A stretch of 64,000 bases of DNA, taken from contig OZ245742.1 of the NCBI GenBank assembly GCA_965227295.1, positions 3,648,001 through 3,712,000 on the forward strand. Direction: 5' to 3'. Below are positions 784-39,794 of this stretch, piece after piece. The notes beneath the pieces were generated by a model. The model was not told where the DNA came from, did not search any database, and was given only the letters and a program-made list of their open reading frames with translations. The translations under genes and the position numbers were made by a program. Every line of letters begins with the position of its first letter. The first letter of the stretch is position 1. This DNA comes from Leptonemataceae bacterium. GTDB taxonomy: Bacteria > Spirochaetota > Leptospiria > Leptospirales > Leptonemataceae.

Positions 784-895
784 CGCGCCAGGGATTGGAA
801 GGGTCGCGCGTGAGCGCGAGTCTTTGCGTAGCAAAGACCGAAGGCGAAGCCGGAGCCCTGGAAAGCCCGACCGCCGCAACGCGGCGGGGGCGCCC
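784..895 (+). repeat. Structured palindromic element (family A, Flavo-1-like), copy 1
   Basis: CGCGCCAGGGATTGGAAGGG...CCCTGGAAAGCCCGACC...GGCGCCC with four internal hairpins; matches four other copies in the window. Confidence 0.85.
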
Positions 896-979
896 AAAAG
901 ATGCTTATCCGTTTTACTATACGATGATTCCGCGCCGTTGACGAATGTCGGGCGCGTTTGCGCGATAGCAGAGCTGAGT

Positions 980-1660
980 ATGCCCAGGAAAAAGAAAGAC
1001 ATTAAAAATTCCAAAGACAAGGCCGCAAAGAAATCGAAGGACAAAGCCGCGAATAAGAAATCGAAGAAAGCTAAGTCCTGGGCGGATTATGTTAAGATTC
1101 ACGGCCAGGGCGAACTCAAGGCCTTTGTACACCCCGCCGCCACCGTGGAGGGGGATGTGGAACTCGGCGAGGGCTCGTCCATCTGGGCCGGGGCCGTCTT
1201 GCGCGGGGATCTGAACCGCATTGAGCTCGGACGTTTCGTGAACATCCAGGACAACACCACGTTGCACGTCGACGGCCGGTCGCCCATGAGCATCGGTGAT
1301 TATACTCTGGTGGGCCACAACGTTATGCTGCACGGTTGTGTGATCGGCCGGGGCGTTATGATCGGCATCGGCAGCATCGTGCTCGATCATGCCGAAATCG
1401 GTGACGGGGCCATGATTACGGCGGGTTGTTTGATTCGCGGCGGTAAGAAGATCCCGCCCCGGGCGCTCGTGGTGCAGAAGGGTGCCGAGCTCAAGATCAT
1501 CGAGAACGGGGCGAAGACCGATCTTACGGTGACCGGCTCGCTGGAGTACTTTGAGCTGGGGAAACGGTATCGGAAAGGTGTCGTGAAGAAACTGGAGCGT
1601 TCCGAAGAGCTGGAGATGCACACCCGGGCGAAAGCGATTATTGCGGAGCTGGGAATCTAA
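980..1660 (+). CDS. Gamma carbonic anhydrase family (hexapeptide repeat) protein with Lys-rich N-terminus
   Basis: 'GAVLRGD', 'NIQDNTTLH' and 'VGHNVMLHGC' motifs. ATG at 980 preferred over the longer ORF, which starts inside a repeat. Confidence 0.9.
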   Translation: MPRKKKDIKNSKDKAAKKSKDKAANKKSKKAKSWADYVKIHGQGELKAFVHPAATVEGDVELGEGSSIWAGAVLRGDLNRIELGRFVNIQDNTTLHVDGRSPMSIGDYTLVGHNVMLHGCVIGRGVMIGIGSIVLDHAEIGDGAMITAGCLIRGGKKIPPRALVVQKGAELKIIENGAKTDLTVTGSLEYFELGKRYRKGVVKKLERSEELEMHTRAKAIIAELGI

Positions 1661-1665
1661 GATGC

Positions 1666-2004
1666 TTACGAGAGATACTGGCTCTCGAATTCTTCGGGCG
1701 TGACGATTTTGAAGAAGTTATCCAGCTTCGCCAGCCGAAAGACGTTGAGGATCATGGGCTTGAGGCCGAAGAGGATCATCTCGCCGCCGTAGTTTTTTAC
1801 TTTGTTCAACCCTTTGATCATGGAACCCATGCCCGAGGAGTCGATGAAGTTCACCGCGGTCATGTCCACGCCGACCTTCGCCGGGCGGTCGCCGATCATG
1901 TCTTCGAAGTTTTTTTCGAAGGTCTCGGACTGCTCGATATCGAATTTCCCTTCCAGTTTGAGTACAAGAAGGTCGTCGCCGTGCCTGGTCTTCGTTAGAT
2001 CCAC
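1666..2004 (-). CDS. STAS-domain anti-sigma factor antagonist
   Basis: 'VDMTAVNFIDSSGMG' phosphorylation motif; 112 aa. Confidence 0.9.
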   Translation of the reverse strand: MDLTKTRHGDDLLVLKLEGKFDIEQSETFEKNFEDMIGDRPAKVGVDMTAVNFIDSSGMGSMIKGLNKVKNYGGEMILFGLKPMILNVFRLAKLDNFFKIVTPEEFESQYLS

Positions 2005-2058
2005 GGTGGCAACCTTGTATGATTTACAGTTTCAGTCAATCCATTTGAGCCGTGCCGT

Positions 2059-3108
2059 TCAATGAATGCGGCGACGCACGGCAAATTCCAGGCCGGCTTC
2101 TTTTGTGTTGATCCACACCGCCTGACTTCCGGCCAGGGCCACCACGAGCGCCTCGCTGGCGTAGCCGCCCTCGGCCTGCAGTTGTCCGCGGCTGTAGTAG
2201 CGATGGCCGTAGAATCGCAGCGAGATATCGTAGTCCTCGTTCAGGTGATACTCCGCGCCCAGATTCAACAGAAAGCCCTCGCCGCCGCCGTACTCCACAA
2301 TGAAGTTGATTCCCCGCTGGACGTGATGATCCCGCGCGTAGTTGTAACCGCTGACGAGTAGCAGATTCGCGTCGAATCGAAACTTGCCGGTGCGGAAGCG
2401 ATAGCCCGGACCCACGGGAAACTCCAGCACGGAATTCGCGAAGCTGTTGCCGAGGCCGATGGGGCCGTAGAGTAACAGGCTGCCCGTGCCGATCCACTGC
2501 ACCGCATCGTAGGTATTAAACTTGAAGTACGCGTAGCGCAGCGAGGCGCCGAGATACAGGCCGTCGTCCGCATCGCTCCGGGGCAGGCGTCCGGTTTGCC
2601 ATAGTTGTACGAGGGGACTCACGTAGAGTTTCAGCGAGGCTTCGAGATCGTAGTGTTGCATGTCCGTGCGCGCATAGGAGAGGGCGAAGTTCCGATTGCC
2701 GGAGAAGATCTCGGCGGAATCTCGAAAGGCCCACTTCGAAGTATCGAAACCGTTCTCGTGCTGGCTGGAATTGGACAGGGGCAGGACGAAGTCTTCGTTG
2801 TAGGTCGTGCCGGTGTCGACATACCGAAACGTCGTGCGATAACTAAAACCCGCGTCGATCAGAGAGCGCGAGAAGTCCAGGCGGAGCCCGTAGTAATCGA
2901 AGTTCCGCGGATACGTGAGTCGCGATCCGCCGGCGAAACCCGAAGCGTCCGGCGTGCGGCTGCCGGTTTCCAGGACGTGTTTGCCTTCGTTGCGGCCGTA
3001 GATGAGCCCGGCCCGAACGTCGACGGCATCCGCCAGGACGGCGGAAAATCCGCCGGAAAAAAGAATCGCTGAAAAACCCGCGACGAAGATTCTGGCGGTG
3101 CCTGGCAT
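2059..3108 (-). CDS. Outer-membrane beta-barrel protein (omptin-like putative porin)
   Basis: Signal peptide ending 'AVLA-D'; amphipathic aromatic-rich beta strands; 'GGSRLTYP' near the N-terminus. Confidence 0.6.
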   Translation of the reverse strand: MPGTARIFVAGFSAILFSGGFSAVLADAVDVRAGLIYGRNEGKHVLETGSRTPDASGFAGGSRLTYPRNFDYYGLRLDFSRSLIDAGFSYRTTFRYVDTGTTYNEDFVLPLSNSSQHENGFDTSKWAFRDSAEIFSGNRNFALSYARTDMQHYDLEASLKLYVSPLVQLWQTGRLPRSDADDGLYLGASLRYAYFKFNTYDAVQWIGTGSLLLYGPIGLGNSFANSVLEFPVGPGYRFRTGKFRFDANLLLVSGYNYARDHHVQRGINFIVEYGGGEGFLLNLGAEYHLNEDYDISLRFYGHRYYSRGQLQAEGGYASEALVVALAGSQAVWINTKEAGLEFAVRRRIH

Positions 3109-3135
3109 TCCCACTATCCCTGAGCCCCCGGACGG

Positions 3136-3714
3136 ATGATCAACAAGATTCGCACCTATATTCGCTCGAATTTCTTTACGCTGGCCCTGCTCGTGCTGGT
3201 GCTTTCTTACCTGGCGTACCAACGCCTGCCTGCGTTCTTGAACGATCGCGAACTCATCGGCTCTGCGGCGCCGGATTTTACGCTGCCGGTGATGGCCGAG
3301 CGCGAAGGCGAGACCGACGGCGTGGTTACGTTAAGTGAACTTCGCGGCAAGAAGGTGCTGCTGAATTTCTGGGGGACCTGGTGCGGCCCCTGTGTTTCCG
3401 AGGTGCCGGCCCTCATCGAAATCACCGATGAACTGCGCGGTGCGAACTTTGTGATGCTGGCCATTACCGAAGAGAATCCCGGCGTGGTGCGCAGCTTTGC
3501 CCGCGAGAAGGGCATCAACTATCCCGTCGTCTTCGACAACGCCGCGCGCGTGCACCGGGACTATCGTGTGAATCTATTTCCGACGATGGTCTGGATCGAC
3601 GAACAGGGAAACGTCGAAAGCATCGGCCACGGTCTGGACTTTGTGTTGACATACAAGATTCGCGAGTGGGTCACGGGCAGTTACTTTGCTGAAAATGACG
3701 GAGGCGAATCGTGA
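3136..3714 (+). CDS. TlpA/ResA thiol-disulfide oxidoreductase
   Basis: N-terminal TM anchor, 'APDFTL', 'LNFWGTWCGPC'. Confidence 0.9.
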   Translation: MINKIRTYIRSNFFTLALLVLVLSYLAYQRLPAFLNDRELIGSAAPDFTLPVMAEREGETDGVVTLSELRGKKVLLNFWGTWCGPCVSEVPALIEITDELRGANFVMLAITEENPGVVRSFAREKGINYPVVFDNAARVHRDYRVNLFPTMVWIDEQGNVESIGHGLDFVLTYKIREWVTGSYFAENDGGES

Positions 3715-5654: not shown

Positions 5655-5691
5655 GCCGGCGCAAGATACTAACTTTGCACAGGAACATGTT

Positions 5692-6156: not shown

Positions 6157-6162
6157 GTTTGT

Positions 6163-7743: not shown

Positions 7744-9507
7744 ATGATAAACAATCTTTACCGCTCATGCATCACGACCCTTCTCGCGATTCTCGGGGCG
7801 TGCTTCTTTTTCACGTGTGGTGATCCGCCGTCGCCGGAACTGGTCTTTCACAACGGCCGCATCCTGACCATGCGTCCGGGAAGCTCTGAGACGCCCGCGG
7901 CGGTCCATGTTCGCGACGGCGTCATTGTAAACATCGGCAACGTCGAAGAAGTTTTCGCGGCGGCGCCGAATGCGCAGCGCATTGATCTGCACGGGGCCGC
8001 GCTTCTGCCTGGTTTCATCGCACCGCATACGCATCCGGAACTTTCAGCGTATCTTCACACCTTCGTCGATCTCAGCGGCTTCACGCATCGCACGCCCGAT
8101 CAGGTGTGGGACGCGTTGCGAGCCGCCGTGGCGGAAGCCGAACCCGGGGAATGGGTCTACTGTCGCGGTTTCGATCCGATCCTCATCGCCGGTCTCTCCG
8201 GTCCCACGCGACAGGAACTCGACGAGATCGCGCCGGAAAATCCGGTCGTGATCCTGGCGCAGTCCTTGCACACGGCCTGGGCCAACAGCCCGGCGTTTGC
8301 AGCGCTCGGCATCGATGCAAATACGCCGGATCCCGGTCCGGCTTCTTACTACGAGAAGAACGATGGTGGACTCAGCGGCATGATCGTGGAAGTCGAAGCG
8401 ATGCAGCCGTTCATGCAGGCGGCGCTACCGACCTTCGATATCAAAAAGAACTTTCAGGGCGTGCTCCGCGACTACAGTCGTCACGGCATTACGAGCATCG
8501 GTACGGCGGGGCTCTTCGGCAAAGACGATCGTCCGCTCATGATGTTACGCTGGCTGTCCGCCGAGAACCCGGGACTGCTGTTGCGCACGCTTGCTGTCTT
8601 CGGTTTTCTGCCGGAACGCGAGCCCGCGGTACGGAACTTCGTCTATCTCAAGGCCGACAGCCCGTTCGAACTTCCGGAGAGCCCGGAGCGAGAGGACACT
8701 AAGTTTCAAATAATAGGCATTAAGATGTGGTACGACGGTTCGCCGTACACCGGTAGCATGTATCTGCGGGAAGCATACAAACAAAGTGAGCTGATGCAGA
8801 GAGACCTCGGCGTTCCGGCAGGCAGTCGCGGGAGTTCGGTGATTTCCCGCGCAGAGTTCCGTGAAACGGCCGCGAGGTTTCACGGCCGGGGGTGGCAGCT
8901 CGCGGTGCACACCCAGGGCGATCAGGCGGCCCTGGAGGTGGTCGAAGAACTACGGGAAGTCCTGGGAGAGAATCCGCGGCCGGATCATCGTCATCGCCTG
9001 GAGCACGGTCTCTTGATTCCGAAAGACGTTATGCCGGACATTGCGGCGAGCGGTCTGAATCTCAGCTATCACATCAATCATCTTTACTACTACGGCGAGG
9101 CCCTGCGAACTTCCATCCTCGGCGAGGAACGCGCGGAAGAGATGCTGGCCGTGCGCAGCGCGCTGGACGCCGGGGTGACCGTGACGCTCCACGCCGATCA
9201 GCCCATGTATCCTGAGGATCCGCTGTCATTGATCGCCACGGCGGTGAATCGAAAGAGCCGCGACGGCCACGTGATCGGAGTCGGCCAGGCGATCAGTGTG
9301 AGTGAGGCGCTGCGTGCCGTGACCATCGACGCGGCCTGGCAACTCGGCATGGAAACGAAGCTGGGTTCGATTGAGGTCGGCAAGTACGCGGACTTCGTCG
9401 TGTTGGACCGCGATCCGCGTTCCGTTCCGAACGGCGAGCTACGTAAACTTCAGGTGCTGGAAACTTACGTGGGCGGCGTGCGCACGTATGCGGCAGGCGG
9501 GGCATGA
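7744..9507 (+). CDS. Amidohydrolase family 3 (YtcJ-like), probably a lipoprotein
   Basis: 'LLPGFIAPHTH', 'AVHTQGD', 'RHRLEH', 'GSIEVGKYADFVVL'. Confidence 0.9.
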   Translation: MINNLYRSCITTLLAILGACFFFTCGDPPSPELVFHNGRILTMRPGSSETPAAVHVRDGVIVNIGNVEEVFAAAPNAQRIDLHGAALLPGFIAPHTHPELSAYLHTFVDLSGFTHRTPDQVWDALRAAVAEAEPGEWVYCRGFDPILIAGLSGPTRQELDEIAPENPVVILAQSLHTAWANSPAFAALGIDANTPDPGPASYYEKNDGGLSGMIVEVEAMQPFMQAALPTFDIKKNFQGVLRDYSRHGITSIGTAGLFGKDDRPLMMLRWLSAENPGLLLRTLAVFGFLPEREPAVRNFVYLKADSPFELPESPEREDTKFQIIGIKMWYDGSPYTGSMYLREAYKQSELMQRDLGVPAGSRGSSVISRAEFRETAARFHGRGWQLAVHTQGDQAALEVVEELREVLGENPRPDHRHRLEHGLLIPKDVMPDIAASGLNLSYHINHLYYYGEALRTSILGEERAEEMLAVRSALDAGVTVTLHADQPMYPEDPLSLIATAVNRKSRDGHVIGVGQAISVSEALRAVTIDAAWQLGMETKLGSIEVGKYADFVVLDRDPRSVPNGELRKLQVLETYVGGVRTYAAGGA

Positions 9508-9643: not shown

Positions 9644-9674
9644 ATAGGTGAACGCAGCAGGGGAGGCTGCGATG

Positions 9675-9745: not shown

Positions 9746-9845
9746 GATCAGCGCGGCCGGCGAATCCCGGCCGTATCGGACAGACTCTCCGCGGAGCAGG
9801 GGGCGTCAAGTCTTTGGAAAACGGGTGACGTTCGTGGATGCCGAT

Positions 9846-9887
9846 TCTTGCGTTAGGGATCCGCAGGGTGGCCCGAAAGGCCAGTCC
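9846..9887 (+). repeat. Family A element, truncated half-copy inverted relative to copy 2
   Basis: TCTTGCGTTAGGGATCCGCAGGG-TGGCC CGAAA GGCCA-GTCC matches the first third of the element. Confidence 0.65.
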
Positions 9888-9893
9888 GCTTTT

Positions 9894-10006
9894 GGGCGCC
9901 TCGCCGCTTTGCGGCGACCGGGCTACTCCGGGCTCCGCTTCGCTCCGGCCTCGCCTGCGGCGAGTCTCGCGCTAACGCGCGACCCTGCGTATCCCTGGCG
10001 CGAAGA
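9894..10006 (-). repeat. Family A element, copy 2
   Basis: Minus strand reads TCTTCGCGCCAGGGATACGCAGGG...GCCCGGTCGCCGC AAA GCGGCGAGGCGCCC. Confidence 0.85.
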
Positions 10007-10012: not shown

Positions 10013-12103
10013 CTAAGAATTCAACAACGCCCGCAGATTATCCAGGCTGTGCACTGGCCGTTCGCACGCAAGCTGCCGGCAAACGTAGAACGTATCTTTC
10101 TCCGCGACGGCACGATCCGCAAGCAGCGGCACAATCTTCCCGGCCTCGTCACGATTGTCGCCGTGGGCGACGGCCTGCACCGACTCGCCGCTCTGTTCGG
10201 TGGCGAGGGCGTTCAGAACTTCGCGCAAATCATCCAGAGTTCCCGGTGTGACGAGAGCAATCTCCGCCGGCGGTTCCAGGAAGTACGCGAACGTTTTTAA
10301 TAGAAACGAATGCGCCGCGCCCTGTTCGCTGAGCGACGTCGGAAAGGCCGCAAAGATTTTGCGGGCGCGCTCATGGTACGCCGCGGGCTCGACGCCGTAG
10401 AGCGCGAGCGTATGAAACAACCGTGCCGCCGCCGAATTGCCGGAGGGTTCCACACCGTCGTACGACTCGATGGAGCGCACGATGAGGTCGTCGCTGTTCT
10501 CGGACGTCTCGTAGTAGGCGCCGCCGGCTCCGTCGAAGCGCGTGATGATCTGCGCGGCCAGTTCCTGCGCACGTTCGAAGAAGCGCGGCGCAAAGCCGGC
10601 GCGGTACAGATCCAGGCACGCGTTGCCCAGGAGCGCGTAGTCCGGCAGTGTCGCCGGGATGCGCGCTTCGCCTTCGCGGTAACGGCGCAGCAACGAACCG
10701 TCGGCCTGGCGCATCGTCTGCCAGAGAAAGTCCGCGGCCTTTTCGGCGCGCGCGTAGAGTTCGGTGTCGTCGAAGGCTCGTGCGGCCTGGGAGAGGGCCG
10801 AGATCATGAGGGCGTTCCAGGACGTGAGAATCTTATCGTCGCGCAGCGGGCGGATGCGTTTGTTGCGTTCCGCGAGCAGCGCCGTGCGGGCGCGGTCCAC
10901 GGTCTTTTGCCAGGCCGCGGCGTCGGTGCCGGCGGGCAGGCCGGCGACGAAACGTTCCCGGGGCAGGCCCTCGTGCAGGATGTTCTTGCCCTCCCAGTTG
11001 CCGCGCATGGACAGCCCCCAGAATTCGGCGAGGAGCTTGCGTTCGTCTCCGGAAAAACCGGCCGAGCTTAATGTTTGATCAAAATCACTTAAGCTCCAGA
11101 CGTAGAACTTGCCTTCCTCACCTTCGCTGTCCGCGTCCTCCGCCGAGTAGAACGCCCCTTCCGGCGAGGTCATGTCCCGACGCAGATACTCACAGACGTC
11201 CCGGCCCCAATCACGGTAACGTTCGTTGCCGGTGAGACGATAGCTATCGGTCAGGGCCCACAGAAAGAGCGCGTTGTCGTAGAGCATCTTCTCGAAGTGC
11301 GGGACGAGCCAGTCGTGGTCCGTGGCGTAACGCGAAAGTCCGCCGCCGATCTGATCGTAGATGCCGCCGCGCCGCATGTGGTCCAGGGTTTCCTCCACCA
11401 TGCGCAGGGCGTGGGCCTCGCCGCTGCGGCGATAGTACGTGAGCAAAAAGAGCAGGCCCATGGACGGCGGAAACTTGTTCGGCCCGTTGCTTGTGAAACC
11501 GCCGCTGTATTCGTCGAAGAGCTGGGAGTACTGGCGGAACGTCGCCTCCAGGGCCTCCGCTCCCGGAATTTCACCGCCGCCGGAAGCCGACTCCTGTTTC
11601 AGGAAGTTGTGCAACGCCGTGGCGGACTCGTCGATCTTCGCGCGGTTGTTCTGCCACATGTTATCGATGGACTCGAGGACCTGGCGAAACGACGGCCGCC
11701 CGAAGGCCGGCTGCGGCGGGAAATACGTACCGCCGGTAATGGGCAATAACTCCGGCGTGAGGAACATGTTCAACGGCCAGCCGCCGTGTTGGCCGGTGGC
11801 GTGCAGGGCCTTCATGTAGATCTGATCGACGTCCGGTCGTTCCTCGCGGTCGAGCTTAATCGCTACAAATTTTGCATTAAGGATGGCGGCGGTGTCTTCG
11901 TTCTCGAAGGACTCGCGTTCCATGACGTGACACCAGTGGCACGTGGCGTAGCCGATGCTGAGTAAGATCGGTTTGTTTTCCGTGCGAGCCTTAGAAAAGG
12001 CTTCGTCGCCCCAGGGGTACCAGTCGACCGGATTGTGGGCGTGTTGCAGCAAGTACGGCGACTTTTCGTTGGCGAGGCGGTTCGTGTGTTTGGGTTCGGA
12101 CAT
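10013..12103 (-). CDS. YyaL/SSP411-like thioredoxin-domain protein (DUF255)
   Basis: '[24 protein letters not shown]', 'CHWCHVM', '[10 protein letters not shown]'. Confidence 0.95.
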
Positions 12104-12182: not shown

Positions 12183-12300
12183 GGGCGCCCCCGCCGCTGG
12201 TGCGGCGGTCGGGCTGCTCCGGGCTCGCTATTCGCTCGGCCTCGCGACTTCGTCGCGAGTCTGGCGCTACGCGCCACCCTCCGCATCCCTGGCGCGAAGA
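12183..12300 (-). repeat. Family A element, copy 3
   Basis: Minus strand reads TCTTCGCGCCAGGGATGCGGAGGG...GCCCGACCGCCGC...GGCGCCC. Confidence 0.85.
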
Positions 12301-27631: not shown

Positions 27632-27657
27632 ACCGCGGAGGCGCTGAGGACGCGGAG
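27632..27657 (+). repeat. Family B repeat, copy 2 (degenerate extra copy at about 27599-27624)
   Basis: ACCGCGGAG GCGCTGAG GACGCGGAG. Confidence 0.7.
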
Positions 27658-27687: not shown

Positions 27688-27808
27688 CTTGCGTCAGCGA
27701 TTGGAAGGGTTGCGGCGTAGCCGCAAGTCCGGAGCGCGAAGCGCGCAGGACCGAAGCGATAGCGGAGCCCTGGAAAGCGCGGCCCGAGCGTAAGCGAGGG
27801 AGACGCCC
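27688..27808 (+). repeat. Family A element, copy 4
   Basis: CTTGCGTCAGCGATTGGAAGGG...CCCTGGAAAGCGCGGCCC...GACGCCC. Confidence 0.85.
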
Positions 27809-31148: not shown

Positions 31149-34100
31149 TCACAGCTTGTGGCCGCTGAACGCGAGGTCCTGCAGGACCCGGGTCGCGCCG
31201 GCATCGGCGCCGGCCTCGGTGACGACGACATCCCCGGTATTTAGATACAGCACGGCCGTCAGGCTTCCGTTGGGGCGTTGACCGGAACTTTCGCCCGCCC
31301 GGGCACGTCCACGGTAGTTGCCGTTGACACGCAGTTCGACGTACACGTCGTCGGTCGTGCTGCCGTCAAAGACACTGCTGATGAATTGAATGCTGAACGA
31401 GTAGAGTCCCGGCACCGGTGCTATAAACTGCGTGCCGTCGAAGGCGTTGCCGACGTTCGTGTAGATGTTGATGTAGTTCGTGATCGCCTGGCCTGAGCCG
31501 CTGGAGCTGTGATCGGTGACCGCATAGAAACCGATCTCCTGCTTCGGCGCGATGCCCGGCGACGTCAGCTTGAGTAACTGCACGCGGGTGTAGATTTCGG
31601 GTTCGCTGATATTGGAAGCGATGCCCATGTTACCGGCTTCCGAAGGCGCCGGAATGTAATGTTCAATGATGAACGTCTTCGGTGAGCTGATCTCGAAGAT
31701 ACCGGTGATCGAAGCCGTCGTAGAACCTATCCCTGCGCCCTGGTCTGCATAGGTATTGGTTCCGAAGAGTGCCACCGTTGAGTCCGTGATATTCGTCAGC
31801 CTGGCTCTCGTAATATTCACCCGGTGTGCCGGGACCTCGGCGTCGATCTGATACGTTCCAGCCGGGAGCGTGAACTGATTTCCGCTGAGGGCTACGCCGC
31901 TGATGTTTGTGTCGAGCATGTTCAGATCGCGCGTAACATAACCTCCCGCCGGCGGTTGCCCGCCCGGAGTTCCCGCCGGTTTCTGATCGTAGATCATCGC
32001 ATAGCCGCCGGTGTTGACCTGCAACGTATCGCGGACCTTCATGATCCAGACGACCGTCATGTTTACCGGACGGGTTTCGGTGCCGGTGCGCCCGTCCTTG
32101 ACCTCGTCGACGCCGGTGTACACGGCTTCGAAATTCGCGAATCCGTTGCCCAGGTCCGCATAGTAAGGAGGGCCGTTGAAAATCGGTCCGGTGCTTCGCC
32201 CGCGCAGGTAGTGCGTGTGGTCCTCGAACTGATCGTCCTCGAACGTGCCCGACGTCGTATCGCCGCGCAAAAACGCGCCCTTCGTATTCCAGGTCTCTTT
32301 CGGATTGTTGAGATCCGGCATGGTTTCGCCGTTGTAGATCGACTGCGGATCGATCAGCACCTGACCGTTACACTCCACCCAGCCGTCCGGCAATTGCGGC
32401 GTGCCGGCAAGCGACTTGTGCCAGGCGAGAATCGTGCCCACGGGCAGATGCGAGCCGCCGGCTGCCGTGCTCTGGAACGACCCGTCGGGAAAGAGAATGC
32501 CGTCGACGCCGGGGGTGCCGCCGACGTGTAACTTCGCCTGAGGAGAAGTTTGATCGATGCCGACGTTGCCGCGATCGTAGTTGATGCCGCCGCTGACCGC
32601 TTCCCACTGGCCGCCCAGGCCGGTGGCGTCGATGAGCTTCGTAATGTAAACCTGTGAGTAGATTTCGTCGAGGCCGGTGATGCCCGAGGCGACACCCATG
32701 TCGTTGCTGCCCCAGGAGGTTTGAATAAAGTGCTGAAGTTCGAACGTGGATTCGGAGCCGATACTGATCACGCCGGCGGCGGTGGCGATCGTGGAGTTGT
32801 TCGTGCCGCTTTCGTTGAACGCCGACTGCCCGTCCAGGGCCACATTGTTCGTGGAGAGGTTGTACAGACGCAGGCGATGTACGTCGGCGCGGTAGTTCGG
32901 TGCCGTGGCCAGTACACGGTACGTGCCCGGCGGTAAGGTAATCTGATTCGAATCTAAGGATACCCCGTCCAGGTTTGTGGCGACCGTATTCAGGTCCCGG
33001 GTGTTCCAGGAGTTTCCGACGGCTGTGCCGCCCTGGGTGGCCGACGGCTTGCGGTCTTCGAACAACGCATAGCCCGCCGTGGGTTCGACGAACGAGCCCA
33101 GGGTGACCTTCATGATCCACACCACGGCCATGTTCGCCGGGCGAGTTTCCATGCCGTAGCGCGGATTGCCGTTGATTTGATCATTCACCGGCCGTGTGCT
33201 CATGTGTTCAGCGACGGGGGAGTTGTTATCACCACCTCCGGCGCCGGTGTTATTCTGAGGATACTGACCTTCATTCGTGCCGGCATGAGGATACACGCGG
33301 TGAATGTGTCCCTGAAACGTATCCTGTTGCGGAGTGCCGCCGCTCGTGTTGCCGCCGCGGAGAAAGAGACCGCCTTCGTTCCAGGTATCCAGGGGATTGT
33401 TTAAATCCGGCGTGTTCATGCCGACGTACGGCGAATCCGGGTCCGTGATCTCCTGTCCATCACACTCCAACCAGCCGGGCGGGAGCGGTGGTATGCTGCC
33501 GTCGAAGTTCTTGTGCCACGCCAGGATCGTACCCAGCGGTAGATTGTCACCGCCGGAGATGGCGCCGTTCCCGCCGCCGCCCGCGGTGGTTTGCACGGAG
33601 CCGTCGGGAAAACGAATGCCCCCCGCCGTTGTTTCGATGACACCGCCGACGGTGAGCCGGGACGTGGGATTGTCCGTGCCCACGCCGACATTGCCGCTGC
33701 CGCTTTGAATGTAGAGTACGGACTGTTCCGAGGCGGAGAGGGCTTCTTCCGGATTAGAAGTTACTGAGGGATCATTAGCGGCGAAGCGCCGGATGAGATC
33801 GCGGCCGGGCAGGGCGAGGGTGGTATAGCTGCGATTGTTGTAGATGTCGAGGACTTCCGCTTCGGAGAGCCCGGAGTTGTAGACGCGCACGTCGTCCAGT
33901 TCACCGAACAGACCGCCGCCGGCATGAAAGGCCGCGGCGAGGCGCTTCGGATTCGCAAGGCTGACGGGTTCGGTCCGCGGCGGCACGTACGGATTCCCGG
34001 TGATGAAATCATTCGTGATGCGCTGGCCGTTGACGTAGGCCTCGAAGTCGGAGCCGCGGCGCGCGAGTACGAAGTGCGTCCAGATGCCGCGCGGATCGGG

Positions 34101-36845
34101 GATGACTGTTTGATACTGGGTGTAGACCGAAACGCCGGTGTAGTACACGAAGTGCCGTACGGTGGGCACGCCGGAGTTGATGTCCACTTCCAGGCCGAAG
34201 CTGTCGTCGACGATGCTGCCGTCTCCGCGAAAATCCAGGAAGACGTAGACGCCGTCACCGGCGCTCGCGTCGATTCTCACCCAGGCCATCACGGTAAAAT
34301 CGTTGAGGCTCGCCGGTGAATTGAAGGCCGGAACCGAGACGTACTCGTCCCCCGTGCCGGATTGCAGCGCCAGGTCGAAGCGGCCGGGCACCCAGGTCGT
34401 TCCGCCGACGGTCGTGCCGTTGTAGCCGTTGCCCGAGGTATCCAGGATGTTCGCCCCGGAGCCCTCGTCGAAGTTGTACGCGGCCAGCATGCCGTCGATG
34501 CGCCGCACGAAGACGTTGTCCGCCGACGTCGATGTCACGGCGTCCGGGTTGCCGTAGTACATGTAAATCGTGCGCGTACTGCCGCCGCTCAGGGTCGACA
34601 AGCGCACCCAGACGATTGTCGTGGCCGTGTTCACCCCGCTCTCGATCCAGTGCGGCAGGGCCGTGAGTTCGTCGTTGTCGAGGAACAATAGATCGCCGGC
34701 GTCCGCGCGCAGTTTGCCCGCGCCGATGAGGGCCGCCGTGTCGATCGTAAACTTTATCTGAAAATTACTTAAGGTTGATCCGTTGGCCGTGTTGTCGATC
34801 ACCAGGGGCATGCGATACGAGCGTCCGGCGACGCCCTGGATGGTGGCATCCACGCGCAGCGGCGTGTCGAGCGCATTCACCGAACGTACTCGCAGTCCGT
34901 CCTCGATTTCCAGAACGCCCGAGCTGTGGTCCGACTGGATGCGTCCGGCAATCGTAACGGTGTCTTCGTCCTGATCGCCCAGCAAAACGTCGCCGGGGAC
35001 CTGCTCGGTTTCTTTTGCGATGACATCGCCCCGCACGGTGAAGTTGCCTTTGACCTCTAAGTCGCCTTCGATGACATCGCCGGCGCGGTTGACCTTGATT
35101 TCGCCGAGGGTATCCAGGGCCTGGGCCACCGTTTCGACCCCGTCCATCAAATCATTGCTATCCGGGTCCGGAACCGGGGCGGGGCTGTGTTCCGTTGCCG
35201 TGCTGATGTTCTTGTGAGCACGAAAACGAACCACGGACTTCGTGGGATTGCCGTCCGCGTCGAGTAAGGTTGCCTGGGCTTGCTGGATGTCGCGCGCGGC
35301 GCCGGTGGTCCAGGTCACCGCGGCGATCCCGTCGGCGTCGGCGATGACGTTCACCGGGCTGCCGGTGTTGCCGGCGTCGGACGCGTCCGTGAGCGAACCC
35401 GCCCCGTCCACAATCTGAAAACGTACGGTGGACCCCGGCACCGGCTCCCGTCCCGCCGCCACGACGACCCGCAGTTCTTCCTGCAACGTCGCATTGGGCA
35501 GCAACGATTGGCCGTCCCCGCCGGCATAGTTCAGCACGGCGTCGCTCAGGGCCGGAAAGATGTGTCGCGCATCGGCGATTTCGCTAAACGTACCGCCGGT
35601 TAATCTTAGAAATCCCAGGCGCGCGTAGTGCCGCGTATTTTCGCTCCGCAGAGCGGCCGGTCCGGAGGCGGCCATGGGCCATTCAATGTTGCGGTTGGTA
35701 ACGCGGGCGGGAATCATCCAGTAGTCGCCGCTGCGATACAGACGTCCGGACGCCGCCGTATCGAAGGCGACTTCGATCCCGGCATCGAGTTCGAAAAACT
35801 CGCCGTCTTCCGGTACCGCGGGTTCGGCAAGCACGCTGATCGTATCCCAGAGTCGCAGTCGCCGGACTCCACGGTTGAAATCGTTAATATCCAGGGAAGT
35901 AATGCTAACATCGTAGTGTGCGATGCTGTCGGGATCGATGGTCAGGCTGTTCCCACTGACGGCGACGATTCGCGCAAGTGTGCCGGGCCGGCCTTCGAGT
36001 TCCAGGCCCTCATCAATGATCTCAATCCACTTGCCGGCCTGGAAGTCCGTCTCGCGATCCCGGCCGGTTCCGCGTACCGTGAGGGTGATGCCGTCGGATT
36101 CCAGGGCCAGCCACTCGCTTACGATTGTGCCGTTGTTGCGCGACCATTTGTACGTGGCGGTACCGGGCGCGCCCCCGTTGTGAATCTCCACTCGATAGAG
36201 AAGATTGTCCGATCCCGTGTAACCGCCGCGGGCGCCGATCTCGCACGGATCGGTGGAAACGCCGTCAGCGGCGGTGCGGGCCGTGAGCCGCCCGCGCGAG
36301 CTTTCCGCGTCGGCGTTGATCAATGTCGTCCACTCGGGAGGAATCGATGCCGCCGTGTAGTTCGCATCGGCGAGCTCCAGTAACTTCACCTGATGTAAGA
36401 TTTGCACCCGCGCGCTGCCGTCGATACCGCCCAGGGCGATCTCGCGGATGGCCGGATCTTCCAGCCAGGTAACTCCGCGGCGCCGGACTTCCAGGTAAGC
36501 CAGATACACGCCGTCATTCGCGGGCAGGGCGCTGCCGGGTAAATCAGCTTGTTCTGTGAAGAGAACGTCGGCGGCGTTTTCGCAGAGCAGGCCTTCGAGA
36601 TAAAAACGTCCCGCTGAAATCGTAAGGTCGGAGCCGGAGCCGTTCGGGCTTACGTGAAAACCTCCGTCCTCCCGCGGCGCACCGGAGCGGCCGATGCCGT
36701 CCCGAGCGAGGAGTGTGTCCCGGCGTACCGTCAGGTCGGCTTGCTCGTTCCAGTCGGCGTCCGTGAGGATGCGCCCCTGCTGCTGGCGCACAGATTCGTA
36801 GTTACGATCCGGCTGTAAAGAGTTCCGGGAAATGTCGGTTTTCAT
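31149..36845 (-). CDS. DUF6519-type tail-fibre-like mosaic protein (Ig-like, DUF2341, LamG, two tail-collar modules, C1q-like C-terminus)
   Basis: N-terminus 'MKTDISR...YESVRQQQGRILTDADWNEQ', 'GGYTGSDNLLYRVEIH', 'YRSGDYWMIPAR'; 'IYMYYGNP'; 'AAYNFDEGSG'; 'PxGTILAW..GWxECxGQ' twice; 'FIAPVPGLYSFS'. Confidence 0.85.
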   Translation of the reverse strand: MKTDISRNSLQPDRNYESVRQQQGRILTDADWNEQADLTVRRDTLLARDGIGRSGAPREDGGFHVSPNGSGSDLTISAGRFYLEGLLCENAADVLFTEQADLPGSALPANDGVYLAYLEVRRRGVTWLEDPAIREIALGGIDGSARVQILHQVKLLELADANYTAASIPPEWTTLINADAESSRGRLTARTAADGVSTDPCEIGARGGYTGSDNLLYRVEIHNGGAPGTATYKWSRNNGTIVSEWLALESDGITLTVRGTGRDRETDFQAGKWIEIIDEGLELEGRPGTLARIVAVSGNSLTIDPDSIAHYDVSITSLDINDFNRGVRRLRLWDTISVLAEPAVPEDGEFFELDAGIEVAFDTAASGRLYRSGDYWMIPARVTNRNIEWPMAASGPAALRSENTRHYARLGFLRLTGGTFSEIADARHIFPALSDAVLNYAGGDGQSLLPNATLQEELRVVVAAGREPVPGSTVRFQIVDGAGSLTDASDAGNTGSPVNVIADADGIAAVTWTTGAARDIQQAQATLLDADGNPTKSVVRFRAHKNISTATEHSPAPVPDPDSNDLMDGVETVAQALDTLGEIKVNRAGDVIEGDLEVKGNFTVRGDVIAKETEQVPGDVLLGDQDEDTVTIAGRIQSDHSSGVLEIEDGLRVRSVNALDTPLRVDATIQGVAGRSYRMPLVIDNTANGSTLSNFQIKFTIDTAALIGAGKLRADAGDLLFLDNDELTALPHWIESGVNTATTIVWVRLSTLSGGSTRTIYMYYGNPDAVTSTSADNVFVRRIDGMLAAYNFDEGSGANILDTSGNGYNGTTVGGTTWVPGRFDLALQSGTGDEYVSVPAFNSPASLNDFTVMAWVRIDASAGDGVYVFLDFRGDGSIVDDSFGLEVDINSGVPTVRHFVYYTGVSVYTQYQTVIPDPRGIWTHFVLARRGSDFEAYVNGQRITNDFITGNPYVPPRTEPVSLANPKRLAAAFHAGGGLFGELDDVRVYNSGLSEAEVLDIYNNRSYTTLALPGRDLIRRFAANDPSVTSNPEEALSASEQSVLYIQSGSGNVGVGTDNPTSRLTVGGVIETTAGGIRFPDGSVQTTAGGGGNGAISGGDNLPLGTILAWHKNFDGSIPPLPPGWLECDGQEITDPDSPYVGMNTPDLNNPLDTWNEGGLFLRGGNTSGGTPQQDTFQGHIHRVYPHAGTNEGQYPQNNTGAGGGDNNSPVAEHMSTRPVNDQINGNPRYGMETRPANMAVVWIMKVTLGSFVEPTAGYALFEDRKPSATQGGTAVGNSWNTRDLNTVATNLDGVSLDSNQITLPPGTYRVLATAPNYRADVHRLRLYNLSTNNVALDGQSAFNESGTNNSTIATAAGVISIGSESTFELQHFIQTSWGSNDMGVASGITGLDEIYSQVYITKLIDATGLGGQWEAVSGGINYDRGNVGIDQTSPQAKLHVGGTPGVDGILFPDGSFQSTAAGGSHLPVGTILAWHKSLAGTPQLPDGWVECNGQVLIDPQSIYNGETMPDLNNPKETWNTKGAFLRGDTTSGTFEDDQFEDHTHYLRGRSTGPIFNGPPYYADLGNGFANFEAVYTGVDEVKDGRTGTETRPVNMTVVWIMKVRDTLQVNTGGYAMIYDQKPAGTPGGQPPAGGYVTRDLNMLDTNISGVALSGNQFTLPAGTYQIDAEVPAHRVNITRARLTNITDSTVALFGTNTYADQGAGIGSTTASITGIFEISSPKTFIIEHYIPAPSEAGNMGIASNISEPEIYTRVQLLKLTSPGIAPKQEIGFYAVTDHSSSGSGQAITNYINIYTNVGNAFDGTQFIAPVPGLYSFSIQFISSVFDGSTTDDVYVELRVNGNYRGRARAGESSGQRPNGSLTAVLYLNTGDVVVTEAGADAGATRVLQDLAFSGHKL

Positions 36846-37002
36846 ACTGCGTCTCCGGTCCGCAGTACGCGGGTACGATCGATCGTCGCAACCGGCTCTT
36901 GCTGTGAGATCTATCGTGTTCGGGTTTTATCCGCGTGAATTGTATATGTTTACCGGAGGACGGCTTTACGGAGCAGAGTGTGCAGGAAAGCATGGTTGTC
37001 GC

Positions 37003-37422: not shown

Positions 37423-37425
37423 TCA

Positions 37426-37544
37426 ACCACCGAGGCTCCGAGGTCACCGGGGAAGATTGGGGAGCGCGTACGTACTGGAATTGCGCGCCGGCTACGATCA
37501 CGCTCTACTTCTTTTTGTCTCGGCGCCCTCGGTGTCTCGGTGGT
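37426..37544. repeat. Inverted pair of family B repeats (37426-37451 +, 37519-37544 -)
   Basis: ACCACCGAG GCTCCGAG GTCACCGGG on plus and ACCACCGAG ACACCGAG GGCGCCGAG on minus, between convergent genes. Confidence 0.75.
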
Positions 37545-38131
37545 TGATTCCTGATTTTCTCGTAACAATGGCAGTCGATCGTATGATCGTTCACCATGCC
37601 CACGGCCTGCATGAACGCATACACGATCGTCGGGCCCACGAACTTGAAGCCGCGCTGTTTCAGTTCCTTGCTCATGGCCTGCGCTTCTTTCGTTTCGGTG
37701 GGCACCTGCTTGATGTTCTTCCAGGCGTTCTGGATCGGCCGGCCGTCCACGAAGTCCCACAGAAAATCGGCGAAGGATCCGAGTTCGTCGCGTAGTTTTA
37801 AGTATGCCTTCGCATTGCCGATGAACGCGTCGATCTTCAAACGATTGCGCACGATGCCCTCGTTCTTTAACAGCGCCTCACGTTTCTTTTGCGTGTAGCG
37901 CGCCATCTTTTCGGCGTCGAATTGATCGAAGGCCTTGCGATAGCCGTCGCGTTTTTTTAAGATGATGAACCAGCTCAGGCCGGCCTGGGCGCCGTCCAGC
38001 AGTAACTTCTCGAACAGCGCGCGGTCGTCGTACTCCGGCACGCCCCATTCGGTGTCATGGTAGTGCTCGTACATCTCATTGCCTGCGGGAACCCAGGCGC
38101 AACGGATGATGGGATTCTTCGATTCAGGCAT
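37505..38131 (-). CDS. tag: DNA-3-methyladenine glycosylase I
   Basis: 'RCAW', 'YHDTEWG', 'QAGLSW', 'GFKFVGPT', 'NDHTIDC'. Confidence 0.95.
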   Translation of the reverse strand: MPESKNPIIRCAWVPAGNEMYEHYHDTEWGVPEYDDRALFEKLLLDGAQAGLSWFIILKKRDGYRKAFDQFDAEKMARYTQKKREALLKNEGIVRNRLKIDAFIGNAKAYLKLRDELGSFADFLWDFVDGRPIQNAWKNIKQVPTETKEAQAMSKELKQRGFKFVGPTIVYAFMQAVGMVNDHTIDCHCYEKIRNQPPRHRGRRDKKK

Positions 38132-38795
38132 CAAACGAACACGCAATGATTCTGCTGATGTGTGCGAACGGTCGTCCGCTTTCTTGCTGCCACGTACCAA
38201 ACGCGTCCTGCACGGCGGCCCAGTCGCGTTTCGATGACGGATCTTTTTTTACGACGCCCTGGTGAATCAAATAGCCCGTAACATCCTTCGAAAGCAGGAA
38301 GGTGTCCTTGCCCATGCCGCGCAGAAAGTAGAGGCCGGAGTTTCCGCCCAGGCGTGAGGCCCGCTTTTTTAGAAGATCGCGGAGTCCGACGATGTCCGTC
38401 GCCGGCCAATCGGCCACGAACTTCGCGAAGCTCCCGTGTTCTTTCTGAATGTCCGTGATGAATACCGCGTTCGCCCGTACGGTTTTGATCTTCATGAAAT
38501 TGCGCACGATGCTCGCGTCGGCGGCGAGTTTTTCCAGGGCCTCGTCGCTCAGTCGCGCGCACTTGCGCGGATCAAAGCCGGCGAAGGCGCGCTCGAAGTT
38601 CGGCCACTTGTTCTCAATGACCTGCCAGGAAAAACCCGCGCGAAAGACACAGGCGGTCATCTCCGCCAGGAAACGATCGTCGGGTATATTGCTCAGTTGT
38701 TTCGCGGATCTGACTTTCGGAAGGAGCTTTTCCAGTTCCTGTTCACCGCCCTTGCGTTTGGCAGCGCGGGCATAGATTCTTGCGAAGGGCTCCAT
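38124..38795 (-). CDS. Second Tag-family glycosylase-like protein
   Basis: 'VFRAGFSWQVIENKWPNFERAF', 'IVRNFMKI'; lacks the zinc ligands of canonical Tag. Confidence 0.85.
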   Translation of the reverse strand: MEPFARIYARAAKRKGGEQELEKLLPKVRSAKQLSNIPDDRFLAEMTACVFRAGFSWQVIENKWPNFERAFAGFDPRKCARLSDEALEKLAADASIVRNFMKIKTVRANAVFITDIQKEHGSFAKFVADWPATDIVGLRDLLKKRASRLGGNSGLYFLRGMGKDTFLLSKDVTGYLIHQGVVKKDPSSKRDWAAVQDAFGTWQQESGRPFAHISRIIACSFDA

Positions 38796-38854
38796 GAATC
38801 AGCAGCATTTGCCGGCACGTTCCTTCCTGCAAGAATAGCTTTGCCGCCGGCGTC

Positions 38855-39469
38855 TCAATGTGCGCCGGCGACCACGAACGCCGGAATCAAACGTTCCAGG
38901 TTTCGCATTTGTTCGTTCAGGTATTCGGGGCTGTTGTAGCTCTTGGCCACCGTGAGACTGCCCTGGATGTGCGTGTAGATGCAACGCGCGGCAGCCTCGG
39001 CGTCCAGGTCTTCGAGGTCGCCGCTTTCCGCGGCATCGCGCAGCGTAGAGGTCAGCAGGGAGATGATGAGATCGTTCCAGCGCGTGCCGGCCACGCGCAC
39101 GTTCTCATGGCGGGTACCGACTTCGACACCAAGGTTTCCGAAGGGACAACCGCAGATGTGGCCGGTCTCTTCGCGTTTTTGCATCTGTGCCTCGACGATG
39201 TATCGGGACAGGCGCTCCAGGCGTTCCAGCGGGGGGATATCGTCGGCGAAGACGTGCTCGCGTAGATGATCCTCCTGGCCGCGGAGGTTCTCGTCCATCA
39301 CCTCAAGCATCAGCGCTTCCTTTGTACGAAAGAAGTAGTAGAAGCTGCCCTTGTTCATTCCAGTGCTCGTGCAGATTTGATCCACGCTCACTGACTCGTA
39401 GCCGTTTTCCCAGACCAGGCGTGTGGCCGCTTCCAGAAGGCGTTTCCGTCCGTCACTGCGTTTACCCAT
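38855..39469 (-). CDS. TetR/AcrR family regulator (NemR-like)
   Basis: HTH 'SVDQICTSTGMNKGSFYYFFRTKE'; 'GCPFGN'. Confidence 0.92.
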   Translation of the reverse strand: MGKRSDGRKRLLEAATRLVWENGYESVSVDQICTSTGMNKGSFYYFFRTKEALMLEVMDENLRGQEDHLREHVFADDIPPLERLERLSRYIVEAQMQKREETGHICGCPFGNLGVEVGTRHENVRVAGTRWNDLIISLLTSTLRDAAESGDLEDLDAEAAARCIYTHIQGSLTVAKSYNSPEYLNEQMRNLERLIPAFVVAGAH

Positions 39470-39673
39470 AATGAAAATCTCCGAAAATTATACAATCGGT
39501 CAACAGGATTACGGCGTGGTCATTAGACAACCGGCCGATCAGGCGGACCGAACCTGTTAAAAATGACAATTTCGACGGAGATTTTTGCGTACAAAATTAG
39601 AAAAGTGTGTGTGGGGGGGAGGCTATCGGTTGATCGATTCCCCACCGAGCGCGAAGCGCGGAGGGGAACGCCT

Positions 39674-39794
39674 GGGCGCATCGCCGCTATGCGGCGACCG
39701 GGCTTTCCAGGGCTCCGCTACGCTTCGGTCCTGCGCGCTTCGCGCTCCGGACTCGCGGCTAACGCCGCGACCCTTACAATCCCTTGCGCGAAGA
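39674..39794 (-). repeat. Family A element, copy 5
   Basis: Minus strand reads TCTTCGCGCAAGGGATTGTAAGGG...CCCTGGAAAGCCCGGTCGCCGC ATA GCGGCGATGCGCCC. Confidence 0.85.

Follow-up and report, generated by a model that had tools for sequence, protein, structure and literature searches.

In this work, we describe a branched repeat of about 110 bases in a Leptonemataceae genome, and we report as new that its 3' end marks the start of orphan TIGR04388 polymorphic-toxin-like modules. Our preferred explanation, to which we give about even chances, is that a long form of the Flavo-1 motif has multiplied between genes as this element, which likely folds as single-stranded DNA and likely serves as a joining point where a trans-acting enzyme would fuse its 3' end to new DNA.

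Results

Copies in the window

The window, a stretch of 64,000 nucleotides, contains the five copies listed in the initial annotation, all present with one shared fold, as well as two truncated copies that it had missed. That copies 2, 3 and 5 lie on the minus strand had also gone unmentioned. The features are as follows.

785..893, plus strand: copy 1, full element, P1 GCGCC/GGCGC, P2 GGG/CCC (parsed P1-to-P1)
9850..9887, plus strand: 5' half of a truncated copy, P1 GCGTT (HMM match 9829-9888, E 9e-8)
9896..10001, minus strand: copy 2, full element (parsed P1-to-P1)
12185..12295, minus strand: copy 3, full element (parsed P1-to-P1)
27691..27806, plus strand: copy 4, full element, P1 GCGTC/GACGC, P2 GCG/CGC (parsed P1-to-P1)
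39640..39672, plus strand: 3' hairpin and P1 arm (AACGC-C) of a truncated copy (by eye, no HMM match)
39676..39789, minus strand: copy 5, full element, P1 GCGCA/TGCGC (parsed P1-to-P1)

The closing stems (P1) are those first proposed, GCGCC/GGCGC in copies 1-3, GCGTC/GACGC in copy 4 and GCGCA/TGCGC in copy 5. The change of the next stem (P2) from GGG/CCC to GCG/CGC in copy 4 and the three inner hairpins quoted at that time, including CTCGCC/GGCGAG, were likewise exact. Copy 1, which is in sense orientation relative to both neighbours, lies in the gap between a vWA-like gene (a label read from the sequence by eye, the family search having given no match) and a gamma carbonic anhydrase-like gene, with a pyrimidine leader immediately 5' and a CC-AAAAG tail immediately 3'. 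Copy 2 stands directly after the stop of a 696-aa gene (10013-12103), ahead of a tRNA pair, and is faced tail-to-tail by the partial copy at 9850-9887; copy 3 separates the 696-aa gene from a caa3 oxidase subunit IV gene. Copy 4 follows an MqnC-like radical SAM gene, and copy 5, which the partial copy at 39640-39672 abuts tail-to-tail, lies between a 582-aa gene (39820-41568) and a TetR-family gene. Contigs from two public sequencing runs of one study, which may derive from the source sample, span the window through parts of copies 1-3, and no clean empty-site joint was found in them.

Fold and covariation

The outer fold consists of the 5-bp closing stem P1, a three-way junction with a 3' side hairpin, and P2. 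Inward of P2 come an A.G mismatch, a short stem, a GNA/GNA internal loop, a 3-4 bp stem and a four-way junction; on the third arm of the latter are a second GNA/GGA loop and a mini-hairpin. This four-way junction was parsed perfectly in 139 of the 172 distinct copies, and in these 139 the second loop was GAA/GGA in 82 and GCA/GGA in 41. The element ends 3' in a fixed CC and an A-rich tail; its 5' leader is TCTTC in 103/178 copies and varied in the others.

The covariation claimed from five copies holds in a larger set (178 copies and a 20-sequence alignment), in which the long-range stems P1 and P2 covary almost perfectly. Positions 4 and 5 of P1 are each Watson-Crick paired in 175/178 copies (MI 0.90 and 1.53 bits) and the middle pair of P2 in 176/178 (MI 0.96), all of these pairings being outside the scoring criteria of the parser. 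In the cross-phylum alignment of 20 sequences, 99.2% of cells pair and 33 cells are changed on both sides; its covariation score, which is inflated by sequence relatedness, was 0.332 against 0.093 after shuffling (0/500) and at most 0.100 when slid. The P1, P2 and register alleles occur in 21 combinations among the copies. Since the compensatory changes reflect a small number of helix alleles that have been reshuffled between copies, selection is seen only at the level of the spread of the element: the idea of a structure under selection is sustained in that sense, but not as 172 independent compensatory events. On copy 3, Twister-sister scored 26.2 bits (E 0.14, gathering 34), a match that we rejected because it conflicts with the covarying pairs.

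Relation to Flavo-1

Flavo-1 is known from Bacteroidota and Spirochaetota (RF01705; Weinberg et al. 2010, PMC2864571) and is catalogued by Rfam as an sRNA; it has been an orphan motif since 2010, for which the available passages of the full-text literature give no function. The likeness suggested initially is real for the outer frame, which is common to the published alignment and the Rfam consensus, but the copies stay below the threshold of the Rfam model. Indeed, no Rfam family matched the copies, and the RF01705 covariance model (gathering 42 bits) gave no match in the window at gathering score, none over positions 1-41000 at E<=5, and in the genome a best of 17 bits at an unrelated place (150/384 candidates scored). 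As the copies miss the model score, we treat the element as a long Flavo-1 variant and not as an Rfam member. Both have the frame GCGYN-A-GSG-A-T..GNA...GNA..A-G-CSC-G, with the 3-bp stem, A.G mismatch, short stem and first GNA/GNA internal loop, as well as a second GNA/GNA loop, and both are intergenic and multicopy. In Flavo-1 the second loop leads into a single unbranched inner stem, which the element lacks; in the element only, the two GNA/GNA loops are separated by a four-way junction that adds two arms, and the covarying P1 and 3' side hairpin lie outside the Rfam model. The element also differs by its >200 copies, its host of 60% GC and the evidence pointing to DNA. In L122, a Flavo-1 match and a long-form copy stand head-to-head.

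Copy number, placement and spread

The expectation of many more copies genome-wide was confirmed: an HMM seeded on the five copies matched the 5.94 Mb genome 230 times at E<=1e-5 and, with the cut-off relaxed to E<=1e-3, 246 times; the reversed genome gave 0 matches at E<=0.01. A separate grammar gave 184 matches vs 4 in the reversed genome, and the element counts rest on these two tools. The full-length parse succeeded in 178 of the 246 HMM matches (172 distinct), and 176 of the 178 parsed copies lie outside called ORFs. Other repeat types occur in the same gaps. No replichore bias was seen (128 leading, 118 lagging). Synonymous A on the element strand is mildly depleted within 1.2 kb (O/E 0.87-0.95, z -1.3 to -3.1), and the strand difference is equally large at 2.5-5 kb, so that a local mutation shadow is unsupported here. 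The sequence frame is kept across several phyla; the two-sided element pattern was not matched in viral contigs, phages gave no match and plasmids only weak ones (best Hymenobacter, E 2e-3).

When the orthologous sites were checked, as had been proposed, they were empty in two congeners: four orthologous stretches gave no HMM match at E<=10, and pattern matches numbered 143 in this genome vs 0 and 1 in the congeners. Exact empty-site breakpoints are unreadable because the congeners are only ~70-75% identical. Most copies are solo, and 39 pairs form inverted doublets (14 head-to-head, 25 tail-to-tail), with head-to-head spacers of 18-26 nt (19 nt in 7/14); some doublet families recur at several loci with common spacers. 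No target-site duplication was detected, the longest shared flank word being 4.50 vs 4.43 in the null for 106 solo copies and 4.2 vs 4.4 for 13 doublets, a comparison that very short duplications would escape. Extended flank pairing around the copies was not found either.

The element at orphan toxin modules

At three TIGR04388 loci of this genome, element sequence precedes all 10 parent-homologous orphan modules. Eight of them begin 6-31 nt 3' of the end of an intact copy, one follows a copy split by an intron and one a 5-nt GCGTT remnant. The 10 starts represent 9 different parent positions, and the orphan core fragments are 77-96% identical to the upstream parent gene. These loci gave TIGR04388 and intein-like matches; no toxin family matched in the three loci, and the tips are predicted to be toxins with immunity genes from the architecture only. 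The last, oldest tip of each array has no element behind it, as the circle model discussed below predicts.

In relatives (15 loci from 10 relatives, chosen by toxin gene, and parsed with a grammar loosened after those sequences had been seen), a parsed element ends 3-11 nt ahead of the start in 9/16 truncated modules, 3/16 more follow elements seen by eye and 4/16 are without a close element (62 nt and 684 nt, 772 nt, none). All 12 parsed elements were on the toxin strand and 0 on the opposite one, with 0 in reversed controls. With 42.8 bits, one module-start element of a relative is above the gathering score of Flavo-1. The element was found at 0/35 orphan modules in Rhs loci of Chryseobacterium (13 loci), none of which had a Flavo-1 match; the toxin link is thus not general. 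The junction between element and module is not base-precise (3-31 nt), and because some modules share or nearly share a breakpoint, there were fewer events than modules. Given that the element tail stands at the starts of displaced modules, it is likely a DNA joining point. We found no paper in the open-access literature on a repeat at Leptospira orphan modules, on which the gene-context supplement of Weinberg 2010 may bear.

Introns, insertion sequences and candidate enzymes

At one and the same base of P1, a group II intron has entered two distinct alleles of the element, and a third scar was seen. We take this intron to be of class C from its end and domain 5 features, not from a tree. It represents the only intron type of this genome that touches the element, and it sits inside the element as its target. 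One element allele also lies within an IS5-family element, between the transposase stop and the right end, in 7 places.

The genome has 10 RT genes. At Planctomycete-type loci, the element is downstream, on the same strand, of an RT/maturase-like gene with group II domains 5/6 before it. A 230-aa Planctomycete protein was considered as an HUH enzyme and rejected, since the structure modelled for it (pLDDT 88.8) is similar to that of group II intron RTs (Z 8.7, rmsd 4.2, 182 aligned; VIA), a likeness that is moderate (Foldseek best E 8.9e-4). The Planctomycete RT-like family had no match in the present genome.

Searches for a partner enzyme gave no Y1_Tnp, whether here or in 5 high-copy genomes of spirochaetes. 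No RAYT exceeded the cut-off in the present genome or in 4 others, and neither PF01797 nor NF047646 was matched here (assembly 93.55% complete). The best match to the integron integrase TIGR02249 reached 85.6 bits vs a cut-off of 265. GIY-YIG gave two matches in this genome, the small gene at C1:308924 having no adjacent element. No unknown family recurred among 362 genes neighbouring copies. The gene pairs between inverted copies in Treponema-like and Leptospira-like loci looked ordinary by eye.

Indications of a DNA fold

The predicted triloops are GNA in 290/344 cases, and the tetraloops (n=145) include only 18 GNRA and 3 UNCG. CGNAG occurs 1122 times on the element strand vs 43 on the other, and the junction arms contain 1942 Watson-Crick pairs and 3 G.T pairs. 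GCGNAGC mini-hairpins are of extraordinary stability in DNA, their RNA counterparts being much less stable (PMC13037366). On one strand, the fold combines tandem GNA/GNA internal loops with C(GNA)G triloops, which is a DNA signature, and the element therefore likely folds as single-stranded DNA and not as RNA. In the open-access literature we found no paper with such a reading of the Flavo-1 motif.

Discussion

If the element is a joining point, it would fold when its strand is single, during replication, transfer or uptake, and a trans-acting nuclease or recombinase would cut and join within the first 3-30 bases 3' of P1. Joining to a random site would yield solo copies and doublets. Joining to a point inside the upstream toxin gene would close a circle made of a core fragment, toxin tip, immunity gene and element; this circle would integrate by homologous recombination in the core, so that the old tip ends up further downstream, after the element (C-terminal displacement). 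More tentatively, and with some doubt on our part, Flavo-1 and its long forms might be folded single-stranded DNA recombination signals across phyla rather than RNAs, signals read by an enzyme and whose 3' end closes toxin-tip circles in Leptospirales and ends a mobile unit in Planctomycetes (a permuted group II RNA and a maturase-like gene).

A passive hotspot is unlikely, though it deserves to be weighed. The single-stranded fold would then spread as a passenger and by gene conversion, and its very stable hairpins would cause DNA to stall or break, so that introns, insertion sequences and illegitimate joins would collect just 3' of it without a dedicated enzyme. This would accommodate the imprecise junctions, the partner enzyme that was not found, the IS5-family element with its one allele, the other repeat types in the same gaps and the insertion of class C introns after hairpins (PMC4424553). 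However, ~200 lineage-specific solo or doublet copies with unrelated flanks need a copying route, and IS5 and the toxin loci explain few of them; moreover, the junctions are only on the 3' side and the toxin strand, and a frame kept over several phyla exceeds what a generic hairpin would need.

It seems improbable that the element is a structured non-coding RNA or UTR element acting in the transcripts of neighbouring genes. The Rfam listing of Flavo-1 as sRNA, a sense excess in co-directional gaps (69 sense vs 39 antisense to both neighbours among 108 copies, p=0.005) and an enrichment in convergent gaps (39/176 copies vs 238/1769 long gaps) would favour such a role, but those 39 antisense copies speak against it, as do the dominant GNA triloops and the near absence of G.T pairs in the arms. 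With RNA parameters, folding is better for the element strand than for its complement in 156/161 copies, but the same holds with DNA parameters in 160/161. In Flavobacterium psychrophilum, Flavo-1 is indistinctly sense or antisense to transcribed regions, with many copies outside them (PMC9723704), and an RNA would leave the toxin junctions unexplained.

We attach a similarly small probability to a SINE-like retroelement, in which an enzyme of group II intron type would reverse transcribe an RNA ending at the element, so that copies would have a fixed 3' end with an A-rich tail and vary in their 5' extent. Such an end and tail are present, as are the RT genes and, in Planctomycetes, the same-strand position downstream of an RT/maturase-like gene; yet target-site duplications were not detected, the loops are of DNA type, doublets are inverted, the Planctomycete RT-like family is unmatched here and the intron only uses the element as a target. 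An attC-like integron recombination site, suggested by a folded single strand with bulges, tandem cassette-like arrays and a GCTAAC ahead of some copies, which start GCGTTAG, is very improbable and largely refuted by the lack of an integron integrase over cut-off, the junctions that are not base-precise, the GTT at P1 (GCGTT) in only 41/178 copies and the order of GTT before AAC, which is the reverse in attC sites.

Should the joining-point reading be right, Flavo-1 would be misfiled as an sRNA, and a new class of mobile repeat acting at the single-stranded DNA level would await discovery together with its enzyme. The displacement model of polymorphic toxins has long needed a route to closed circles, and a fixed junction sequence makes that question approachable. 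In addition, the branched, GNA-capped fold is a Holliday-junction mimic provided by nature, in hundreds of variants within a single genome.

Among known systems, MITEs of DDE transposases leave a target-site duplication that was not seen at the element. REP/REPIN sequences with RAYT (Bertels and Rainey 2011, PMC3116915; Di Nocera et al. 2013, PMC3733652) resemble it in being extragenic, lineage-specific and present in hundreds of copies, with inverted doublets of constrained spacers and single-stranded DNA hairpins. However, they measure 20-40 bp against ~110 nt and a multibranched fold, and the element is mostly solo, carries no GTAG or CGTC tag and resides in a genome without RAYT or IS200-type transposase. 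The NTS/SRM repeats with Ssn GIY-YIG single-stranded DNA nucleases (Chenal et al. 2025, PMC11893778) are likewise hundreds of hairpin repeats, read as single-stranded DNA and shaping genome dynamics; they differ in sequence and fold, and here the element flanks no GIY-YIG gene. The insertion sites of class C group II introns follow hairpins of terminators or attC (PMC4424553), and the intron found here similarly enters right after an element hairpin, its target being instead the 3' side hairpin and P1 arm of the element. The closest parallel to the toxin loci is C-terminal displacement in rhs/cdiA loci (Jackson et al. 2009, PMC2935791; Ruhe et al. 2016, PMC4927057), where orphan core-plus-tip modules also come after a parent gene, differ in the length of their core and have small genes and transposases between them. 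Circular intermediates were proposed by Jackson et al., who pointed out the need for tips to form closed circles (PMC2935791). The available text of these sources names no marker of the orphan starts, whereas here a specific folded repeat marks each of them.

The element and its fold

The five window copies reported in the initial annotation exist (copies 1 and 4 on the plus strand, copies 2, 3 and 5 on the minus strand), and the stem changes quoted for them are exact. The host genome, which contains the window, is a single contig of 5.94 Mb (59.8% GC, 93.55% complete), and the expectation of many more copies genome-wide was borne out by an iterated HMM, with 230 matches at E<=1e-5 and 246 at E<=1e-3; the same HMM gave no matches in the reversed genome. 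Full-length parsing retained 178 matches, 172 of them distinct, with a median nearest-neighbour similarity score of 0.84, and 176 of the 178 lie outside the ORFs called in this analysis. Just upstream of copy 1, a CACAGAG triple repeat occupies window 736-760; 37 pairs of this type were found in the genome and 0 in the reversed genome, and near 27632-27657, upstream of copy 4, there is a GC-rich analogue.

The element begins with a pyrimidine leader (TCTTC in 103/178 copies), followed by the closing stem P1 (GCGYN), an A, the stem P2 (GSG), an A, nine bases and the inner arms; its 3' part consists of nine bases, a G, CSC, a side hairpin, NRCGC, CC and an A-rich tail. P1 has six common alleles, which number as follows when only perfectly paired copies are counted: GCGCC 50, GCGTT 41, GCGTC 33, GCGTG 22, GCGCG 20, GCGCA 6; P2 has three alleles. 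The nine-base segments can pair in either of two registers, giving a short stem, then a GNA/GNA internal loop, then a stem of 3-4 bp. The proposed covariation holds: for each variable column, mutual information peaks (0.4-1.5 bits) either with the column it pairs with or with columns that belong to the same register switch, and it does not exceed 0.3 bits with other helices. In 139/172 distinct copies the inner part is a four-way junction without unpaired bases, whose third arm carries a second GNA/GGA loop and a mini-hairpin.

Pairs in the arms comprise 1942 Watson-Crick and 3 G.T, as counted by a parser that favours Watson-Crick splits, and a T.G pair stands beside the first internal loop in twelve copies. 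GNA accounts for 290 of the 344 triloops, and the element strand contains CGNAG 1122 times, the opposite strand 43 times. As DNA, GCGNAGC and GCGNNAGC are described as extraordinarily stable mini-hairpins, their RNA versions being much less stable (PMC13037366). We read the fold as single-stranded DNA because of the GNA triloops, the strand-biased CGNAG, the near absence of G.T and this DNA mini-hairpin stability; judging from sequence, the element is most likely a DNA element that folds as a single strand.

Relation to Flavo-1

The suggested kinship with Flavo-1 (RF01705) stood in part: the published rows of supplement file 5 part 49 (PMC2864571) have the element's frame, and the Rfam consensus has its stem, A.G mismatch and two GNA/GNA loops, but no copy of the element matched Rfam. 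Among 20 loci examined, the only Flavo-1 match was in a Flavobacteriaceae contig, where it scored 57 bits and lay head-to-head with a copy of the long form, the Flavo-1-framed element with extra arms. With a two-sided pattern, the long form turned up in at least 87 stretches, from records of Bacteroidota, Planctomycetota, Spirochaetota, Myxococcota and Deltaproteobacteria; the complement of the match's own P1 five-mer followed downstream in 69 of 86 parsed matches, versus 4.7 with swapped five-mers. Across 401 spirochaete genomes a looser pattern gave 207 matches here, 65 and 50 in the two genomes that ranked next, at least one in 77/80 genomes of the Leptospira-type family, and 0-2 per genome in backward controls. 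The element is a genuine long variant of Flavo-1 that covaries strongly and has expanded in this lineage.

Mobility and insertions

Pattern matches numbered 143 here versus 0 and 1 in the two congeners. The comparison of filled and empty sites proposed in the initial annotation found the orthologous stretches in the congeners free of HMM matches. For copies 1-3 both flanks are kept there, for copies 4 and 5 one of them; the sequence of the gaps has diverged too far for breakpoint reading. The window also contains a 1898-aa ORF (31149-36845); in both congeners its numerous paralogous matches form clusters at other places, with none at the orthologous site. Neighbouring matches less than 400 nt apart are arranged head-to-head (14), tail-to-tail (25) or otherwise or split (11), and no target-site duplication was found at the copies. 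One allele resides within an IS5-family element at 7 sites, its side hairpin holding different inserts. P1 has also twice received a group II intron, each time between its last two bases; one of the targets was a CACGC allele, the other an AACGC allele. Another dispersed repeat family, with about 20 matches ending in GGTTCTCCGCCACCCCCT, is sometimes nested with the element.

Features on the single contig of this genome
38339-39650 and six more sites: IS5-family element with a copy inside it, after the transposase stop and before the right end; the side-hairpin inserts are swapped
2021110-2022447 and 2368353-2369690: group II intron inserted in the element
271115-271230, 1431222-1431337, 2920360-2920475 and more: repeats ending in GGTTCTCCGCCACCCCCT
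767987-768286 and six related sites: conserved 280-nt block, whose 5' end also joins varied sequence

At a third site, a scar near 4263467, the 3' end of the intron is fused to an element copy, and no element lies at the ends of the seven remaining intron-type RT copies. The intron is likely of class C, and the element is its only target in this genome.

Starts of orphan modules with putative toxin tips

This genome encodes TIGR04388 proteins, and a genome of its order has a Leptospira sRNA, so that the host is probably a spirochaete of the Leptospira order. Five loci with giant TIGR04388-like genes carry tandem elements on the gene strand. At the three loci scored, those whose orphan modules (displaced core-plus-tip fragments) align well to the parent, 10/10 parent-homologous modules follow element sequence: 8 start 6-31 nt past an intact copy, 1 past an intron-split copy and 1 past a 5-nt remnant. 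In the parent gene, these modules begin at positions 8081, 9334, 9553 and 9561 at one locus, 3642, 3644 and 3881 (twice) at the second, and 1853 and 2656 at the third. At a fourth locus, parent homology (70% identity) begins 291 and 357 nt after elements; two further parents had no downstream match. From their architecture, the tips would be toxins. Directly upstream of elements at toxin loci lies a conserved 280-nt non-coding block with a perfect palindrome, GAATTCCGCACACGTGTGCGGAATTC, and rve_3 integrase-core insertion sequences often start divergently no more than a few hundred bases from the element (L028, L001 and the 5011638 region of this genome).

In relatives, 15 loci of 10 genomes were chosen by TIGR04388, so that selection was not by the element; after removal of 2 full-length paralogues from 18 downstream matches, 16 truncated modules remained. 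The element was found at the start of 2 of them with a strict pattern, 6 with a second pattern, and 9 (3-11 nt past the element) with a grammar loosened after inspection of the sequences. Variants were seen by eye at 8-23 nt in 3 more; in the remainder the distance to an element is 62, 684 or 772 nt, or there is no element. Each of the 12 parsed elements lies on the strand of the toxin gene, whereas the opposite strand and the reversed controls gave none, and one of the 12 is itself a Flavo-1 match (42.8 bits). Four Leptospira-type loci chosen by element, one of them an Rhs array, have the same layout. The toxin link is not general, since 0/35 orphans at 13 Chryseobacterium Rhs loci had an element. 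We found no report of the element at orphan toxin-module starts in the literature searched, and this tie gives a Flavo-1-like motif a concrete, testable role.

The displacement model requires circular DNA that comprises a core fragment, a tip and an immunity gene (PMC2935791, PMC4927057). Joining of the element's 3' tail to a variable point in the core would close such a circle, and one crossover would then give exactly the observed gene order; the same order would result from a linear fragment if homology anchored one of its ends and the other were joined at the element. By either route, the element's 3' end would be the joining place. That an enzyme reads the folded element has, in our judgement, an even chance, and that the fold is a passive hotspot is possible though doubtful; both readings stand, because RAYT, IS200-type, IntI and Ssn-type partners were not found in this genome. 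Action as RNA, to which a sense excess (69 vs 39) points and against which the DNA-like fold speaks, is improbable. Similarly, spread by a retro route, suggested by the A-rich tail and the Planctomycete unit, seems quite unlikely.

The Planctomycete unit

Of 81 loci of an unannotated 230-aa family, 26 have the element 39-3180 nt downstream, on the strand of the gene; in none of the 81 is it upstream or on the opposite strand. Where the room extends to 1.5 kb or more (40 loci), it lies within 2.5 kb in 19, mostly the closest homologues. The family has 4712 homologues (7996 candidates scored); the protein had no match in Pfam, and its predicted fold is RT/maturase-like at a moderate score. As a mobiliser of the element here the family was rejected, because it is absent from this genome.

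Several loci (L155:2735-4672, L158, L194, L208 and related loci within L135-L214) contain group II domains 5/6, followed by a conserved non-coding stretch of about 1.1 kb and the 230-aa gene, often with a divergent ArdC gene, and the element downstream. In L085, L089, L091, L106 and L120, the interval that separates ArdC from the element contains a second conserved hairpin (CACGGC..GTCAAGG...CCTTGAC.GCCGTG, then a CACAAT/TACAAT-like word), located about 40-150 nt upstream of the element; it resembles an ssDNA promoter-type structure.

Domains 5/6 lie about 1.2 kb upstream of the 230-aa gene in 4/7 loci scanned, and no RT gene precedes them among the 8 loci listed. The unit is a candidate for a permuted group II RNA that has a maturase-like protein of its own. 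Its arrangement, with domains 5/6 upstream and no RT gene before them, is like that of circularly permuted group II RNAs, reported without a nearby intron-encoded protein (PMC8637638); in contrast to the Planctomycete unit, with its candidate one, no such maturase-like protein of their own was observed in the part of that report available to us.
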